Part shown: positions 108 through 63,489 of the stretch, in pieces
How the letters are laid out: the number at the start of each line of letters is the position of its first letter
Numbering within the stretch: position 1 is the first letter of the stretch
From: a virus
Lineage: Duplodnaviria; Heunggongvirae; Uroviricota; Caudoviricetes
IMG/VR virus record: IMGVR_UViG_3300031555_004162
Span: 14,478-78,477 of that record
Strand: one strand, 5' to 3'
Length of the DNA stretch: 64,000 nucleotides
Position numbers and translations under genes: made by a program
The notes under the pieces: generated by a model
Database searches by the model: none
What the model saw: the letters and a program-made list of their open reading frames with translations, nothing else
What the model was told of the DNA's origin: nothing

Positions 108-575
108 TTAAATCATTAAATTAAATGCATCATAAACTCCACTATTGAGTTCATCATAGTCCGGACCATAATGTTTAATTAATTTATCTCTTAATGTATC
201 ATATAATTCTATAACATCTTCATCAGACATACCATCAAATATTGTTTCGCTGTCTGGAGATACTCCATGAGATGTAATAAAATCTTCTACATAACTCTCA
301 AAAGTAGTATAATTGTATGCTAAATCAATAGCATCTTTTAATTCTTCAATTGATTTATTTTCGAGTTCTGTCTTAAACATATTTTTCAATTCAATAACTT
401 TGTAATAAATATCTTCAATTATTTCATTACATTGTTTTGGAATTAATTCCTTTTGAGAAACACTTGAAATAACATCATTTATTTCTTTAAGTGTTCTTTT
501 ATAATTTTTATTAGACACTTTTACAGGTTTATCAAACTCTTTAAGTGTTTGAAAATCTTCTAATATCTTAATCAT
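108..575 (-). CDS. hypothetical protein (155 aa, acidic)
   Basis: ORF on the coding (-) strand, packed against its neighbours; no recognisable motif. Confidence 0.5.
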   Translation of the reverse strand: MIKILEDFQTLKEFDKPVKVSNKNYKRTLKEINDVISSVSQKELIPKQCNEIIEDIYYKVIELKNMFKTELENKSIEELKDAIDLAYNYTTFESYVEDFITSHGVSPDSETIFDGMSDEDVIELYDTLRDKLIKHYGPDYDELNSGVYDAFNLMI

Positions 576-630: not shown

Positions 631-1101
631 TTAATTAAACGCATCAATATATAACTCAACATTATCATCAATAAAGTGAGGCATTGATGTACTTTTTGAA
701 ATAAAATAATCACCATAGTTGTTTATATCCGTATGTTTTTCGTAAAATTCTTTATAATATTCGCGTAATTTATTTATAAATTCAGTCTTAGATGTAGTAA
801 CTGCATCTTTAAGATAAGATGATAACATTGATAATTCAACATAACGATATTTATAGTTATTAGATTCAATATTCCATAAACCCACATTTATATGCAAACC
901 TTGTGAATCTATTATTGTATCTTTGATTTTACATACAAAGGGTTCGCCACTTGTACTATTAAATCCTCCTAAAATTAAGCCTTTATAACTAAATGCAGTA
1001 TCATAAGCTGATTGCAAATCATTAATTATATTTTCAAAATTAAATTCGTTATTATTGATATGTTCTTCATTCATAATTTGTAAGTTTTCAAATAAATTCA
1101 T
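631..1101 (-). CDS. MNLFENLQ-leader family protein 1
   Basis: ORF 631..1116 trimmed to the internal ATG, which has GGAGG 8 nt upstream. N-terminus MNLFENLQIMNE is shared with three adjacent genes. Confidence 0.6.
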   Translation of the reverse strand: MNLFENLQIMNEEHINNNEFNFENIINDLQSAYDTAFSYKGLILGGFNSTSGEPFVCKIKDTIIDSQGLHINVGLWNIESNNYKYRYVELSMLSSYLKDAVTTSKTEFINKLREYYKEFYEKHTDINNYGDYFISKSTSMPHFIDDNVELYIDAFN

Positions 1102-1120
1102 TTTTATTTCCTCCATTTAA

Positions 1121-1444
1121 TTAAGCATTTGCATGAGATTCAAATGTCCCAATAACTAAAAGTGCATTATATATTGTTTCAAATTCTTCAGCTGTCATTA
1201 TATCATCTTCAACCGCTATAGAGATATACTCATTTTTAATTTGAGAAGTATTGGTTCCTCTTTCAGAATTAAAAGCATCTCCAATATCTGCTAATATTTC
1301 TTCGTAAGCTTTTTCAACAAAAGCTACTTTTTCTTTTGGGAATTGTTTTAAGGTTTCTCTAGCATTAGATACCTTCTTAAAGAATTCTCTTGGAGATTCT
1401 GTTTTAGCTTCTTTCATTAACTGCAAATTTTCAAATAAATTCAT
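1121..1444 (-). CDS. MNLFENLQ-leader family protein 2
   Basis: Start moved to the ATG (MNLFENLQLMKE) behind a GAGGTGA site; same conserved leader. Confidence 0.6.
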   Translation of the reverse strand: MNLFENLQLMKEAKTESPREFFKKVSNARETLKQFPKEKVAFVEKAYEEILADIGDAFNSERGTNTSQIKNEYISIAVEDDIMTAEEFETIYNALLVIGTFESHANA

Positions 1445-1463
1445 ATATATCACCTCATTTTAA

Positions 1464-1808
1464 TTATAAGTTATCAACTTTTATTAATATATCTATTTGT
1501 GATGAACTAACATTGTAGATATCAAAATTAAATTCATCAGCAAATGATTTTATAAATTCTCTAAAGTTATTTGGAATTAAACATGGATATGTAACAGTGA
1601 GTTTAATATCATATCCCTTAGAAAAATATTCATCTGAAATATATTTTGTAGCTGAGAATAACATACAAGCATGTAATTCATTCTCTGTTCCAAACTTAGC
1701 TTTAAATTTATCATAAAATTTATTTTCTATTTCTTCTGCAATATCATCTAAAGTTTTATTATTTAAACTAACTTCTTTTATCATTTGCAAATTTTCAAAT
1801 AAATTCAT
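1464..1808 (-). CDS. MNLFENLQ-leader family protein 3
   Basis: N-terminus MNLFENLQMIKE; the body is unrelated to the other family members. Confidence 0.6.
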   Translation of the reverse strand: MNLFENLQMIKEVSLNNKTLDDIAEEIENKFYDKFKAKFGTENELHACMLFSATKYISDEYFSKGYDIKLTVTYPCLIPNNFREFIKSFADEFNFDIYNVSSSQIDILIKVDNL

Positions 1809-1837
1809 TTACATCACTTCCTATAATTATATTTTAT

Positions 1838-2053
1838 TTATATAAATCTTCTATAGCATCTCTTAAATATAACTATCTTATATGTTTTCTTTTCTAAAGC
1901 AGCTATCTCGTTGTTTTTAAGAAAATTATCCGGTAATTCTACTCTAACATATTTCATATTATAATATTCAAACTCTTCACCAATATTTACATCTCGTAGC
2001 AATGTCATATTATCTATGTCTCCCTTCAAAGGTCTCTCCTTTAGGATTTTCAT
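1838..2053 (-). CDS. hypothetical small protein (alternative frame A)
   Basis: ATG (MKILKERP) with AGTAGGA upstream; overlaps ORF 2010..2195 in another frame, so only one is likely real. Confidence 0.3.
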   Translation of the reverse strand: MKILKERPLKGDIDNMTLLRDVNIGEEFEYYNMKYVRVELPDNFLKNNEIAALEKKTYKIVIFKRCYRRFI

Positions 2054-2195
2054 TTTTAGTAATCCTACTGAAAGATTGTTTAAAATTATCAAATTTTTTC
2101 ATTAGAAGAATTCTAGTTTCTTTATTATTAAAATCATTTGCCAATTCATTAAATTTTTCTGATTGCTTTTCTGTTAATCTCATGATGGTTCTCAT
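2010..2195 (-). CDS. hypothetical small protein (alternative frame B)
   Basis: 61-aa ORF starting 30 nt after the upstream gene; no clear RBS; overlaps 1838..2053. Confidence 0.3.
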   Translation of the reverse strand: MRTIMRLTEKQSEKFNELANDFNNKETRILLMKKFDNFKQSFSRITKNENPKGETFEGRHR

Positions 2196-2225
2196 TTACT
2201 ATTAATTTTTATAATATTTATAATC

Positions 2226-2603
2226 TTATTTTTCAATTTTAGTTATTTTTCTATAACCTGAATTATATAAGTTTTTAGCAGAATACCAATAATCTACTCT
2301 TGTCTCACCAAACTCTCTACCAGCCCATTCATCATATTCAATAATTTTATTTAAATCATCATCCATAGCAGATATAGTTTCTGTATAAATTTTTAATTCA
2401 TCTTCTGACATGTCACATTCTGCTTTAATTTCCACTACAGGAGATAATTCCATTAATTTATATTCAAAAGCATGATTAAGATCGTTATGAAGTTTAATAA
2501 AGTCTAATGCTTCATTTATATTTTCTTCAGTATATATTACATCTTTTATATAATCTTTCACTACACCATCTAACGATTTTATTAAGATTGCATATAATTT
2601 CAT
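2226..2603 (-). CDS. hypothetical protein
   Basis: 125-aa ORF on the coding strand. Confidence 0.5.
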   Translation of the reverse strand: MKLYAILIKSLDGVVKDYIKDVIYTEENINEALDFIKLHNDLNHAFEYKLMELSPVVEIKAECDMSEDELKIYTETISAMDDDLNKIIEYDEWAGREFGETRVDYWYSAKNLYNSGYRKITKIEK

Positions 2604-2606
2604 TTT

Positions 2607-2972
2607 TTATTCTCCTTTCAATTTAAATTCAAAATCATAATATTTCTGTAATCCTACTATCATACTTCTCATAAAATAATTCATTTTTTCACTATAATGT
2701 TTTATTGCAAACTCTTTAGCTTTTTCAAATGTTTCAAAACCATATTTGGTATGCAATGTAGAACCAGGAATATCAGATATATTGAATCCATCATAATCAG
2801 TAAGAGTTATAAAAGATGTTCTCCACATTTTATTGCTACCGTCCATAATGCTATGATATTTACTAATTATAATTAAAACATCTATAACATCATGCACTTT
2901 TATTTCTGCCTTATATAATTCCTCTTCACCTTCATGTTTTTTAAATTTTAATTCTTTTAAACTGTTCTCCAT
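2607..2972 (-). CDS. hypothetical protein
   Basis: ORF trimmed to MENSLKEL, which has AAGGAGG 8 nt upstream. Confidence 0.5.
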   Translation of the reverse strand: MENSLKELKFKKHEGEEELYKAEIKVHDVIDVLIIISKYHSIMDGSNKMWRTSFITLTDYDGFNISDIPGSTLHTKYGFETFEKAKEFAIKHYSEKMNYFMRSMIVGLQKYYDFEFKLKGE

Positions 2973-3079
2973 AATGATATCCTCCTTTAAATGTATAATA
3001 TAATTATAAACCATTTTACTATAAATGTAAACATAAATTTATCAATTGTATTTAACTTTGGTATAAGTGTCTAAACAAA

Positions 3080-3120
3080 AATATAAGACTTGTATATTTT
3101 TAACAAGTCTTATAAATTAA
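3080..3120 (-). terminator. hairpin (ataagacttgt / acaagtcttat) after gene 3149..3712
   Basis: 11-bp inverted repeat with an AT-rich loop in an intergenic region. Confidence 0.35.
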
Positions 3121-3148
3121 ATATTAAAACATTTATTTTTAACTTTCA

Positions 3149-3712
3149 TTATAAAAGATTTATGTATAAAAAATCTTTACCTGTTCCTAATTCATTTAAT
3201 GATATATTTATTTTACAATTATTTTCTTTTTCAAATTCAGGTAGTTCTTTTTTTAATTTAAGAATATCATTACCACTTAAATACCATCTACCATATTGTG
3301 ATTGATCATCATTCAAATATATTTTTAAATGTTTATCTTTTATTAATTGAATTAATTTATTATATATATTTAGTATTTTTTCATTATTATTTTTTTCATT
3401 ATTTTCATTATTATCATCATCTAAAAAATCTAATCCATACATAATATCAATTGCTTTATTATATTCATCACTTGTTATTTCTTTAATATTTAAAATATTG
3501 CCTATTGAACATATATCTATCCATTCAAGATCGGTATTATTATCATTACATAATCTATCTATAACTTTTGTAGTACTTTCATCGGAAAATAAAGATACAT
3601 CTATAATCGTTTCTATAGGAATTTTACCGTCCGAACCATTTATCATATAATATTTTTTAGCAACATTATTTTCTTCTTCTTTCATTAATTGCAAATTTTC
3701 AAATAAATTCAT
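3149..3712 (-). CDS. MNLFENLQ-leader family protein 4
   Basis: N-terminus MNLFENLQLMKEEE; GAGGTTGA RBS; Asn/Asp-rich divergent body. Confidence 0.6.
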   Translation of the reverse strand: MNLFENLQLMKEEENNVAKKYYMINGSDGKIPIETIIDVSLFSDESTTKVIDRLCNDNNTDLEWIDICSIGNILNIKEITSDEYNKAIDIMYGLDFLDDDNNENNEKNNNEKILNIYNKLIQLIKDKHLKIYLNDDQSQYGRWYLSGNDILKLKKELPEFEKENNCKINISLNELGTGKDFLYINLL

Positions 3713-3718
3713 TGTTTA

Positions 3719-4078
3719 TCAACCTCTAAAATAATTTATTAAATTTTTAGTTATAAATTCATCATTAATATCATAAAAATTATCATTTACTATAGTTCTT
3801 AATAAATTTAATTGTTCTATTGTTAATTCTTCTTCTTTTAATCTATCTACAAATAATTCAATATCTACTATTTCTGTATCACAAATTATCATATAATCAT
3901 CTATTTCATTATCAGGTTCATATAATTGAAATAATCCATCTAATAAAGTATATCTTCCTATACCACATCTTTTATTGTTATAACTATTATCTTCAAAAAA
4001 TATTTCAGCATTTATTAATTTAGATACAATATCTTCTATATCTTCATATATATCATTAACATTATCAAATAAACTCAT
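3719..4078 (-). CDS. leader-family-like protein 5 (MSLFDNV variant)
   Basis: Start trimmed to MSLFDNVNDIYED with GAGGGA 7 nt upstream; N-terminus resembles the family leader (M[NS]LF[ED]N). Confidence 0.5.
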   Translation of the reverse strand: MSLFDNVNDIYEDIEDIVSKLINAEIFFEDNSYNNKRCGIGRYTLLDGLFQLYEPDNEIDDYMIICDTEIVDIELFVDRLKEEELTIEQLNLLRTIVNDNFYDINDEFITKNLINYFRG

Positions 4079-4190
4079 TTTAAATCCCTCATCAATATAA
4101 TTAAACTTATTTCTATTTAACATTAAATACAGCCAATATAAATTCTATTTAATTATATTTTATTTATCTTAAAATGCATATTTGAAAATT

Positions 4191-4857: not shown

Positions 4858-5400
4858 TTACGGATGATATGTTATTTTTTCAATTTTGGTAATAGAACCA
4901 TTAAGAGGCATATACACATTTGCAGTTCCCATTCTTTTAACTAATTTATTTAATTTTCTAGTGTCTACTACAAATTCAACAATATCTTTATTTCTAACTG
5001 CATATTGATGAGTAGAATTAGTATGTCTATCTGCTTTACAATCACCTAATATTGCATAAAATACTTTTCCCATATCGGTAGTGATTCTATATCTACTACC
5101 AATTTCTGTTCCATAATATGAACCTAATGCAACTACATAATAATCATCGGTAATTCCTAAATCTCTTTCACCATAACTTCTTAAAAATCCTTCATTATCG
5201 GTATATGTCCATGTATGTAAAAATTTATATTGAGCACTTCTTGTATTTGTAACTGCTCTATAGTCCATGTATGTTTTGAATGATGAATTAAACCATGTAG
5301 GCACATTCATTGATGTGTATTCCATATAAGCCGCATTTGCAGGTATACTGCTTCCTACCAAAATTGTTATTGTTAATAAAATTTTTAATAATTTTTTCAT
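4858..5400 (-). CDS. secreted protein, possible 3D (MltA-like) domain
   Basis: Start trimmed to MKKLLKILL (GGAGTG RBS). N-terminal signal peptide ending ...IPANA. Motif VVALG..YGTEIG..I.....G...A..GD..AD resembles the 3D domain. Confidence 0.4.
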   Translation of the reverse strand: MKKLLKILLTITILVGSSIPANAAYMEYTSMNVPTWFNSSFKTYMDYRAVTNTRSAQYKFLHTWTYTDNEGFLRSYGERDLGITDDYYVVALGSYYGTEIGSRYRITTDMGKVFYAILGDCKADRHTNSTHQYAVRNKDIVEFVVDTRKLNKLVKRMGTANVYMPLNGSITKIEKITYHP

Positions 5401-62187: not shown

Positions 62188-63489
62188 TTAAAAATCAATA
62201 TTTCTATCTTTAAGTGATTTTTTTATTAAATATTTTCTATTAGATAATTGTTTAGGTGTTATATTTAATGTTCCACATATAGTATCAACATCATACGTAT
62301 TACAATCGTTTAGAAATTGTTTTAATCCTTCTATGTCATCATATTTAATAGTTGGCTGCCAGTTCTTTGGTCTTTTACCTTTTTTCTTATTTTTATCAGA
62401 GACTAATAGTTTATCATTATTCATTTCATTTTTAGTGTCTACCTCTGGTTTATTTTTTTCGTTATCTATTAAATCTTTATAATTAATACCTTTTCTTTTT
62501 AAAAATGATTGTATTGCACTTTTTTTATCATAAAGTTTTTGAATATTTTCTAAGTTGTATTTTTTCATACAAGATGCTTTACTCATACTATAATAATCTT
62601 TTATAAATTGTGTTGAAAATTCAATTGTATATCTTACCGTGTTTGCTTTTCTATTATCTTTTTTCTCAATATCTTCTTCTTTGATTGCTTCATTTGAAGA
62701 TTTAATTGATTGTTCAAATATATTTTTCGCAGGAGTTAATGTATTTCCAATAGATTTGTATAAATATATTAAAGAATTTAAAATATCATCTAATTTTTTA
62801 GAATTAGCAACATATAAATCTTTTACTATTTTTAAATCCTCATGAAATGAAACGGTTGACTTATTTGTTTCATCTATCATTGATTTTAAGTTGGTTATAT
62901 TATCATTTGTGGTTATAAACTTATTTTGTATGTCTGTAAAAGAATTAATATAATTAACAGTGTCTCTACTATTCACATTGTTAACGTGTTCTTCATATTT
63001 AGTAAATTTATCTTCAATATATTTATCAAACTTAGCAGTTTTTTGTTTGATAATTAAATTTAAAGTAGATTCCAGTTTATTTAAAAAATCAAGAGAAGAT
63101 AATTCCCGTTCTGATATATTTAAATCAAATTCTACAGCAAGGGCTATATCTATTTTTTTCATAACTAATTCAGATAATCTACCTATATATTCACCTAAAT
63201 CATGTTTATTAATACACCTACATTGTTCTAATAAAATTACTTGCGGTCTACCTTCAAATTCATAATAAACTTGATATGGTCCTACTGAAGATTTAGGTCT
63301 GGTGGTTATAGGAGCTATAGTTACTACATCACCTTTTTTATTTCCTATATCATTTGATATAATAACTACTGGTCTTTTTTTACCTTCAATTCTATTAGGT
63401 TGTATATCTCCTAAATCATAATAATAAACATTTCCTCTACTAAATACGTCCAACATTAATCTTTCTCCTTTGTATAACAATTTATCCAT
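62188..63489 (-). CDS. 433-aa protein with an N-terminal MazF/PemK-like domain fused to an uncharacterised C-terminal region
   Basis: Residues ~15-125 (GNVYYYDLGDIQPNRIEGKKRPVVIISNDIGNKKGDVVTIAPITTRPKSS..PYQV......RPQVILLEQCRCINKHDL...IGRLSELVMKKI) align with the Kid/PemK and MazF toxin core. Confidence 0.55.
   Translation of the reverse strand: MDKLLYKGERLMLDVFSRGNVYYYDLGDIQPNRIEGKKRPVVIISNDIGNKKGDVVTIAPITTRPKSSVGPYQVYYEFEGRPQVILLEQCRCINKHDLGEYIGRLSELVMKKIDIALAVEFDLNISERELSSLDFLNKLESTLNLIIKQKTAKFDKYIEDKFTKYEEHVNNVNSRDTVNYINSFTDIQNKFITTNDNITNLKSMIDETNKSTVSFHEDLKIVKDLYVANSKKLDDILNSLIYLYKSIGNTLTPAKNIFEQSIKSSNEAIKEEDIEKKDNRKANTVRYTIEFSTQFIKDYYSMSKASCMKKYNLENIQKLYDKKSAIQSFLKRKGINYKDLIDNEKNKPEVDTKNEMNNDKLLVSDKNKKKGKRPKNWQPTIKYDDIEGLKQFLNDCNTYDVDTICGTLNITPKQLSNRKYLIKKSLKDRNIDF

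Follow-up and report, generated by a model that had tools for sequence, protein, structure and literature searches.

A conserved 12-residue leader on unrelated proteins of an uncultured phage, a putative capsid-targeting propeptide

Introduction

The internal proteins of T-even phages are a diverse, defence-countering set whose members have only a capsid-targeting sequence (CTS) in common (PMC3012670). In phage T4 the propeptides of these proteins are 10–19 residues long; targeting of internal protein III (IPIII) depends on residues 4 and 7 and its processing on residues 8 and 10 (PMC9026906). The characterised gp21-type proteases recognise a short motif and cleave on the C-terminal side of its Glu (PMC9026906). 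Here we describe a comparable arrangement in a 64,000-nucleotide stretch of DNA (the window) from the uncultured phage record IMGVR_UViG_3300031555_004162 of IMG/VR, in which four genes for unrelated proteins start with nearly the same 12 residues, MNLFENLQ[LMI][MI][KN]E. From the genes of this phage and its relatives we predict that this leader, in general form M-N-L-F-E-N-L-Q-x-hydrophobic-x-E, serves to target proteins to the capsid, as a propeptide that a gp21-family protease removes, and we put the probability of this reading at about 65%.

The T4 record illustrates the gene arrangement. The genes ipII and ipIII stand side by side between denV and e, and both start MKTYQEFIAE↓A over 30 identical nucleotides; ipI lies beside 57B and starts MKTFKEF...ITE↓A (here and below an arrow follows the last Glu of the motif). 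Other phages carry proteins in the head by related means. The P1 Dar antirestriction proteins are loaded into the head before the DNA and injected, and loading depends on DarA and Hdf; Piya et al. are said to have found in 2017 that the N-terminal region of the Dar proteins (DarB, Ulx, DdrA/B) suffices for packaging. Giant phages have longer, dissimilar propeptides with an S/A/G-x-E site, and we know of no common short leader reported for them. Giant-phage propeptides can have multiple cleavage sites (PMC9026906), and for polyvalent proteins, which join 2–15 conflict-related domains to a processing peptidase, packaging followed by processing into units has been predicted (Iyer et al. 2017, PMC5512222).

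Leader genes of the window and its flank

The four leader genes are on the minus strand of the window:

3149..3712, minus strand: leader gene, 187 aa, MNLFENLQLMKE followed by an acidic orphan body of isoelectric point (pI) 4.5
1464..1808, minus strand: leader gene, 114 aa, MNLFENLQMIKE followed by an orphan body
1121..1444, minus strand: leader gene, 107 aa, MNLFENLQLMKE followed by an orphan body
631..1101, minus strand: leader gene, 156 aa, MNLFENLQIMNE followed by an orphan body
3677..3712, minus strand: leader-coding 36 nucleotides (nt), copy 1; further copies at 1773–1808, 1409–1444 and 1066–1101

The true start of the 156-aa gene is 1101, which has the ribosome-binding site (RBS) GGAGG upstream, and not 1116, the start of the maximal open reading frame (ORF). 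When up to 3 mismatches are allowed, the 24-nt pattern ATGAATTTATTTGAAAATTTACAA is present four times in the window against 0.01 expected, and 0 of 100 shuffles reach four; a repeat finder independently recovers the same four copies. These are 76–100% identical across about 36–50 nt, and the likeness, which sets in at the ATG, tails off some 36 nt later; the RBS regions in front of the ATG differ. Pattern counts and the N-terminal alignment thus partly confirm the first-pass annotation of this DNA, made from the sequence alone, which had reported conservation of the first ~36 nt. That annotation had also called the bodies behind the leader unrelated, and no two of this phage's ten leader proteins, six of which lie beyond the window, are linked by BLASTP at E ≤ 1e-3. 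Its description of four adjacent genes in tandem needs correction: the near-identical starts and the shared strand stand, but only the genes starting at 1808, 1444 and 1101 are contiguous. Between 3712 and 1808 there are leaderless genes at 2607–2972, 2226–2603 and 2010–2195, and an overlapping ORF at 1838–2092. Pfam and PHROGs gave no match for the window leader bodies, and single-sequence AlphaFold2 models of the 156-aa and 187-aa proteins had a mean pLDDT (predicted local distance difference test score) of 43–44, too low for use. The 107-aa gene (start 1444) has a 43%-identical orthologue, also with the leader, in the syntenic contig JAEIGA010000013.1 (L064).

A fifth member had been proposed at the neighbouring gene that starts MSLFDNV:

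3719..4078, minus strand: possible divergent leader gene, 119 aa, MSLFDNVNDIYED, a doubtful member

This gene has an RBS at the start at 4078 and none at 4123. The repeat finder places 4041–4090 in register with the leader copies at 72% DNA identity, and MSLFDNVNDIYED keeps the pattern only, with hydrophobic residues at 3, 4, 7 and 10 and E at 12. A position-specific scoring matrix (PSSM) made from independent leaders, on the other hand, gives it −8.7 bits, like other N-termini, versus 34–39 bits for the four exact leaders. The DNA repeat thus speaks for membership, whereas the peptide score is at background, and support for membership is weak overall.

The window edge cuts the array: contig Ga0307249_10013307 (loci L010 and L150), identical to the window start, shows six further leader genes downstream:

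110 aa (109 aa from the inner ATG): leader gene beyond the window, MMNLFENLQMMRE
100 aa: leader gene beyond the window, MNLFENLQTLKE
312 aa: leader gene beyond the window, MNLFENLQLFKE, following a UvrB-like helicase and a sigma-70 region-4 protein
841 aa (P0002): leader gene beyond the window, MNLFENLQLMKE, at L150 10001–12526, 8.9 kb past the window start
112 aa: leader gene beyond the window, MNLFENLQIIKE
167 aa: leader gene beyond the window, MNLFESLQMIKE

This phage therefore has at least 10 leader genes in total, for proteins of 100–841 aa. Genes of 718, 1720 and 1212 aa, which resemble baseplate, tail or fibre genes, come directly after the outer leader genes. The bodies are distinctly acidic: nine of the ten have a pI of 4.05–4.77 and one of 6.3, and the median for leader cargo is 4.5 versus 5.8 for the window proteome, in which only 24% of proteins are below pI 5.

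Spread of the leader in related phages

Degenerate-codon scans for the leader covered IMG/VR, JGI/ENA metagenomes and GTDB genomes. The true leader class occurs in contigs of 22–30% GC from human gut, rumen and similar samples, where an RBS precedes an ORF start of the form MNLFENLQ-x-[MLIFY]-[KNH]-E-[SANE], and many of these contigs hold several leader genes. On the fetched low-GC contigs we identified 48 distinct leader proteins, which fall into 30 body clusters, so the further MNLFENL-type starts that the first-pass annotation had suggested looking for in related phages do exist. The search pattern included L3, F4 and L7, and the invariance at these positions is therefore partly circular. 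Two other positions, neither used to select the set, are constrained as well: position 10 is hydrophobic (M/L/I/F/Y) in 45 of the 48 and position 12 is Glu in 40. At position 13, S, A, N and E predominate.

In mid- and high-GC contigs many matches to the pattern do not fall on ORF starts and were rejected as chance; one that recurs, MNFFENLQVPKMLAPYVETIYMDGGN, is internal to a longer ORF and has no relation to the leader. A leader-only profile search of an index of 5.8 billion proteins returned only 21 candidates and is no census. HMMER with a 30-position leader profile against 1.84 billion representatives gave 11 matches at E ≤ 0.001, including the query proteins and low-complexity sequence; it was unproductive because a signal of 12 aa is too short to become significant in so large a library. 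The leader string was not found in the searched literature.

Pfam, PHROGs and PADLOC found nothing significant in the leader bodies besides one leucine-rich repeat relative, a 150-aa leader protein (L095 1086–1535, minus strand) with a BspA-type repeat (LRR_5, E = 1.4e-27). Two others (L028 698–1573 and L047 690–1748) resemble S-adenosylmethionine-dependent methyltransferases, with sub-threshold matches to Methyltransf_23 (19–24 bits, cut-off 27).

A T4-type head module with leader genes

In low-GC relatives the leader recurs in a head module of T4 type, in the order Portal_T4, leader gene or genes, Peptidase_S77 (gp21 family) with a scaffold-like tail, and Gp23 capsid protein. In leader-carrying relatives Peptidase_S77 (PF03420) scores 36–40 bits (cut-off 27) and Gp23 (PF07068) 106 bits, and PF03420 is present in 120 of the 120 protease homologues among the matches listed. 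A leader gene immediately precedes the protease gene in L004/L043, L005/L151, L079, L113 and L156. The modules read as follows:

L004/L043: portal, three genes, 231-aa gene, leader gene, 620-aa Peptidase_S77 protein
L079: 231-aa gene, leader gene, S77 protease (708 aa), Gp23 capsid protein (106 bits)
L005/L151: order as in L079
L153: Portal_T4, S77, Gp23 and Phage_T4_gp13, with leader-type genes on both sides of a gp14-like gene
L156: portal, four leader genes, protease, with additional leader genes among the neck genes

The slot upstream of the protease, which we take to be the place of core genes 67 and 68 in the T4 gene order, is filled by at least three unrelated bodies in different relatives. 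An ordinary paralogue family is thus rejected: the bodies have no relation to one another, and one genomic slot is filled differently from relative to relative. The first-pass annotation had named the opposite pattern, a leader fused to the same body in all relatives, as the sign of such a family.

The window phage belongs to this T4-headed leader lineage because loci L055 and L064 of contig JAEIGA010000013.1 are colinear with it, over 16 ORFs of 38–88% identity; locus L079 of the same contig carries the T4-type head module. The lineage relatives are large, several protease homologues lying on contigs of 177–258 kb, and L156 is binned with a metagenome-assembled genome of Ca. Onthovivens, a genus of Bacilli. 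The closest cultured capsid protein, at 30% identity, is that of Listeria phage LIS04 (Thornevirus, L154), whose genes stand in the same order, with a long U9/S77 protease followed by capsid, neck protein, a gene of 341 aa and one that is gp14-like.

Motifs in the three kinds of protein agree. The leader ends in hydrophobic-x-Glu at positions 10–12, and M-K-E, one of two protease sites proposed earlier, fits at the level of the motif. In the capsid protein, Y-[LMT]-E↓ATNP precedes the Gp23 domain by about 10 residues (L-L-E↓TTQ in LIS04, where the relatives have Y-L-E↓ATNP). Of the 120 protease homologues listed, 101 carry E-L-[IL]-E↓STSP immediately behind the catalytic domain, and the protease has [LI]-x-E near residue 23 as well. 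In both proteins the motif is thus conserved at points where maturation would be expected. The N-terminal 22–24 residues of the protease (...F-x-x-E-N-S-L-S-Y-L-G-E↓E) also resemble the leader (F-E-N-L-Q-L-M-K-E↓S) in a comparison of L079 2262–4388, L005 1917–3836, L004 8575–10437 and P0067–P0186, and the protease may use the same core docking site as the leader. Its long tail is coiled-coil and scaffold-like, and in P0086, P0087, P0158–P0160 and P0163 the tail has an insertion of LPD11 (88 bits at residues 317–382 of P0086), which implies that cargo modules can enter proheads as part of the protease-scaffold protein.

The mosaic protein P0002

The largest leader protein, P0002, has no Pfam domain and no MPTase. 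Its family (P0003–P0043) is a mosaic of 450–870 aa in which module order is shuffled between homologues. Among members collected via the body, residues 1–8 are invariant and positions 9–24 variable, and in distant homologues the start is a different short sequence, likewise ending in [LI]-x-E-S, for example MSIKKLNES or MKINKLLES. The major breakpoints (5 of 5) fall within 4 residues of hydrophobic-x-E-[S/T/G] (IKE↓S, LTE↓S, TTE↓S), and this coincidence suggests that the family is a polyprotein cut by the head protease; going by these motifs, P0002 is probably cleaved wherever two modules meet. The C-terminal module of P0002 is a separate 111-aa gene in L156 (7564–7899). LPD11, a polyvalent-protein domain, was found in a distant P0002 homologue only (101 bits).

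A second leader class

A further set of N-termini, MI[KR][VIL][VIL]E[DSEN], was seen four times against 0.005 expected. It is a potential propeptide of 6–7 residues ending I/L-x-E, on unrelated small proteins of the same phages:

108..575, minus strand: second-class leader gene, 155 aa, MIKILEDFQTLKE, absent from the first-pass annotation
L150 1697–1966 (plus strand) and 2730–3089 (minus strand), and L033 13438–13890: further second-class genes
L075 100, 3937, 5961 and 6512, L134 3465, L153 112 and 361, and L156 15361: second-class occurrences in relatives

The hybrid form MIRILEDLQIIKET, 2.5 kb downstream and just outside the window, bridges both leader classes. The window would hold four cargo genes with the 12-residue leader and probably two divergent ones.

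A different repeated N-terminus, MKIR[NTL]DFVTNSSS[SA]SF, is found on several proteins of 140–236 aa (L025, L067, L136 at 736 and 3253, L148 at 2958 and 3446); the genes are in phage-like contigs labelled 'Bacillales UBA6331', some in tandem.

Interpretation as a capsid-targeting propeptide

The T4-type CTS reading, which the first-pass annotation had put forward, gains support from the S77/Gp23 module in the lineage, the leader genes next to the protease, the hydrophobic-x-Glu end, the matching capsid and protease motifs and the diversity of the bodies. We predict the following course. During head assembly the invariant face L3, F4, L7 would dock the protein onto the prohead scaffold or core, and the gp21-family (Peptidase_S77) prohead protease would cut after Glu12, at hydrophobic-x-E↓S/A/N/E. 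Cleavage would free a mature, mostly acidic protein inside the head, to be delivered with the DNA into the next host cell. We infer docking, cleavage, packaging, ejection and a function of the cargo alike; for the last, host take-over or anti-defence is a default guess.

We suggest, tentatively and with the odds somewhat against it, that uncultured T4-headed phages (about 180–260 kb, probably jumbo) of low-GC gut Bacillota run a generalised cargo-loading system, in which the 12-aa tag and the shorter MI[KR]ILE[DS] variant load at least a dozen unrelated, mostly acidic proteins into the head, including polyproteins cut at their junctions by the prohead protease.

Several observations weigh against the capsid-targeting reading. 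The window leader array is surrounded by small unidirectional genes of early appearance, with no structural operon there, and no S77 or Gp23 gene was found in the 64-kb window and a 22-kb flank (L010, L150), so that the link from this phage to a head module would run through its syntenic relative. The cargo is acidic (pI ~4.5), whereas T4 IPI–III, which are small, basic and DNA-associated, have pI 8.9–9.5. The hydrophobic-x-E motif alone is weak evidence because it is short and the proteome is rich in Glu. Some leader genes of L021, L033 and L089 are in neck, baseplate or fibre neighbourhoods, which fits another virion compartment. The head and neck region of LIS04, examined for the shared leader, does not have it. 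Finally, the phage is uncultured.

Alternative explanations

The leader might instead direct proteins to some part of the virion other than the head interior, as a docking peptide, cleaved or not, for the neck, baseplate or tail lumen. Leader genes do follow a gp13-like gene and surround a gp14-like gene in L003, L043, L134, L153 and L156, and follow a 950-aa baseplate-like gene and a 77-aa gene in L021, L074, L089 and L090; in the window phage four are immediately upstream of the tail- or baseplate-like genes of 718, 1720 and 1212 aa. The tightest recurring neighbour of the leader is nonetheless the prohead protease gene. A Glu preceded at P3 by a hydrophobic residue fits what the head protease, which acts inside proheads, is specific for, and T4 CTS genes are also scattered outside the head operon; we regard another virion compartment as improbable. 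Slightly less improbable, though still unlikely, is a tag that never enters particles and works in the infected cell, either as a helix for a common partner (chaperone, host protease adaptor, regulator) or as a degron. The position of the window array among small, unidirectional, early-looking genes would suit such an interaction or turnover tag, as would the orphan, acidic bodies, which are like many host take-over proteins. It leaves unexplained, however, why relatives have leader genes in head, neck and baseplate operons, why capsid protein and protease conserve the S77-type site too, and why the leader stands on an 841-aa mosaic related to LPD11 proteins, given that polyvalent proteins are predicted to be packaged (PMC5512222). 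A secretion tag, another suggestion of the first-pass annotation, is rejected: as a Sec/Tat signal MNLFENLQLMKE would need a hydrophobic core of 10 or more residues behind a positively charged N-region, and it lacks such a core and is amphipathic and net negative.

Conservation might also reside in the nucleic acid, the first 36 nt being a translation-initiation or RegA-like regulator element or a recombination module for shuffling bodies, with the peptide incidental. The DNA copies are after all 76–100% identical, T4 ipII and ipIII also share 30 identical nt, and body exchange does occur, since different bodies fill the same slot in relatives. Synonymous sites, however, are as free at leader positions as elsewhere in the genome (Leu TTA 0.73–0.79 vs 0.67 genome-wide; Asn AAC 0.04–0.19 vs 0.11). 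Leu3 and Leu7 use TTA, TTG, CTT, CTA, CTC and CTG for a constant residue, although one fixed by the search pattern. The likeness starts exactly at the ATG while the RBS and upstream sequence differ, and the offset variants MSKNLLFENLM and MNSLLFENLQ keep the peptide and lose its distance from the start codon. Because synonymous codon use matches the genome, positions outside the search pattern are constrained and register shifts are tolerated, selection acts on the peptide and not on RNA. The neutral codon use led us to reject an RNA element, and we consider the whole nucleic-acid explanation very improbable, more so than either of the others; recombination from leader to leader is a plausible by-product of the conservation rather than its cause.

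Comparison with described systems

The likeness to the T4 internal proteins is close in arrangement. Both have a short N-terminal propeptide on unrelated proteins (10–19 aa in T4, 12 aa and putative here), several tandem genes outside structural operons, and a gp21-family protease with a Gp23-type capsid protein, here in relatives. The bodies are hypervariable between relatives in both (PMC3012670, PMC9026906). An aromatic residue at position 4 (Y/F in T4 IPI–III, F4 here) and a hydrophobic one at 7 (F7, L7 here) are shared as a pattern resemblance, F4 and L7 both being in the search pattern that defined our set. The propeptides end alike in hydrophobic-x-Glu, with the predicted processing pair at 10/12 here and the known one at 8/10 in IPIII. 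Unlike T4, the leader here is MNLFENLQxMKE, 2 residues longer than MKTYQEFIAE; each genome has at least 10 cargo genes versus 3–4; cargo includes the 841-aa multi-module mosaic; and the protease of this lineage is fused to the long scaffold-like tail. The host here is probably a low-GC gut member of the Bacillota, with Ca. Onthovivens-like Bacilli or Erysipelotrichaceae as candidates, and packaging and cleavage are predicted from genes.

The giant phages (phiKZ gp175, 201phi2-1, SPN3US gp245) share with this lineage large genomes and, on our reading, a Glu-cutting gp21-related protease and scattered genes for head-internal proteins, and their multi-site propeptides resemble the junction motifs of the P0002 family; no sequence relationship to phiKZ, 201phi2-1 or SPN3US proteins was detected in this analysis. 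Like the polyvalent proteins, P0002 is a shuffled chain of small modules. Unlike them it has no MPTase or built-in peptidase, and cutting is proposed to be by the prohead protease at hydrophobic-x-E↓S/T; the four window genes likewise differ from polyvalent proteins in having single small bodies with no Pfam match. The P1 Dar proteins differ in having neither a shared short leader nor Glu-specific trimming of a common tag, and Pfam, PHROGs and PADLOC revealed no Dar homologues among the leader proteins.

Implications

If the leader is a packaging tag, a text search for ORFs starting MNLFENLQ would list the injected proteome of an uncultured gut and rumen phage group, and even the small fetched sample has at least 30 unrelated protein families behind the leader. 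Injected proteins act before any phage gene is expressed and are therefore prime candidates for anti-defence or host take-over. The T4 capsid-targeting principle would then extend to a distant lineage with a different leader and with acidic and polyprotein cargo, and such an extension beyond the T-even phages suggests a mechanism older, or more often reinvented, than the T-even cases imply. Generalised loading, if real, would be the largest known CTS regulon and an easily mined catalogue of injected effectors. The 12-residue tag and its cognate protease could also serve as a portable protein-loading tool for phages of Gram-positive bacteria, as the T4 CTS does for E. coli.

Other features of the window and the leader array

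Candidate regulatory elements accompany the leader block. The exact 18-mer ATAAATAAAATATAATTA occurs in two copies (1824–1841 and 4150–4167, minus strand), each 15–70 nt upstream of the first gene in a leader block, and may be a class-specific promoter; looser matches are at chance level and there are none in L150. A probable terminator follows the 187-aa gene:

3082..3114, minus strand: 12-bp hairpin with U-run, z = −3.25

A promoter-like site at 3031–3003 (minus strand; 11 of 12 matches to TTTACA-17-TATAAT) follows the hairpin, a layout that recalls the promoter and stem-loop cassettes flanking shuffled ORFans in T4-type genomes (PMC2839356). A consensus scan of the window for sigma-70 promoters and terminators gave fewer matches than in shuffled sequence and is uninformative because the DNA is 24% GC. 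Directly upstream of the leader block is a 180-aa protein (4858–5400, minus strand) with a typical signal peptide, MKKLLKILLTITILVGSSIPANAAY, and no family match.

The window as a whole is 24% GC and has about 118 tightly packed genes, every one on the minus strand. Recognisable products include a UvsX-like recombinase, SbcC/SbcD-like nucleases, RtcB, thymidylate synthase, a DNA methyltransferase and two tRNAs, and the window is the non-structural portion of a large phage genome. No DNA-level match was found among catalogued phages and IMG/VR has no close relative; the best cultured match to UvsX is 40% identical. Adjoining the SbcCD-like genes is a protein of about 420 aa (62188–63456, minus strand) with an N-terminal MazF-like growth-inhibitor domain (phrog_1936, E = 6e-18).

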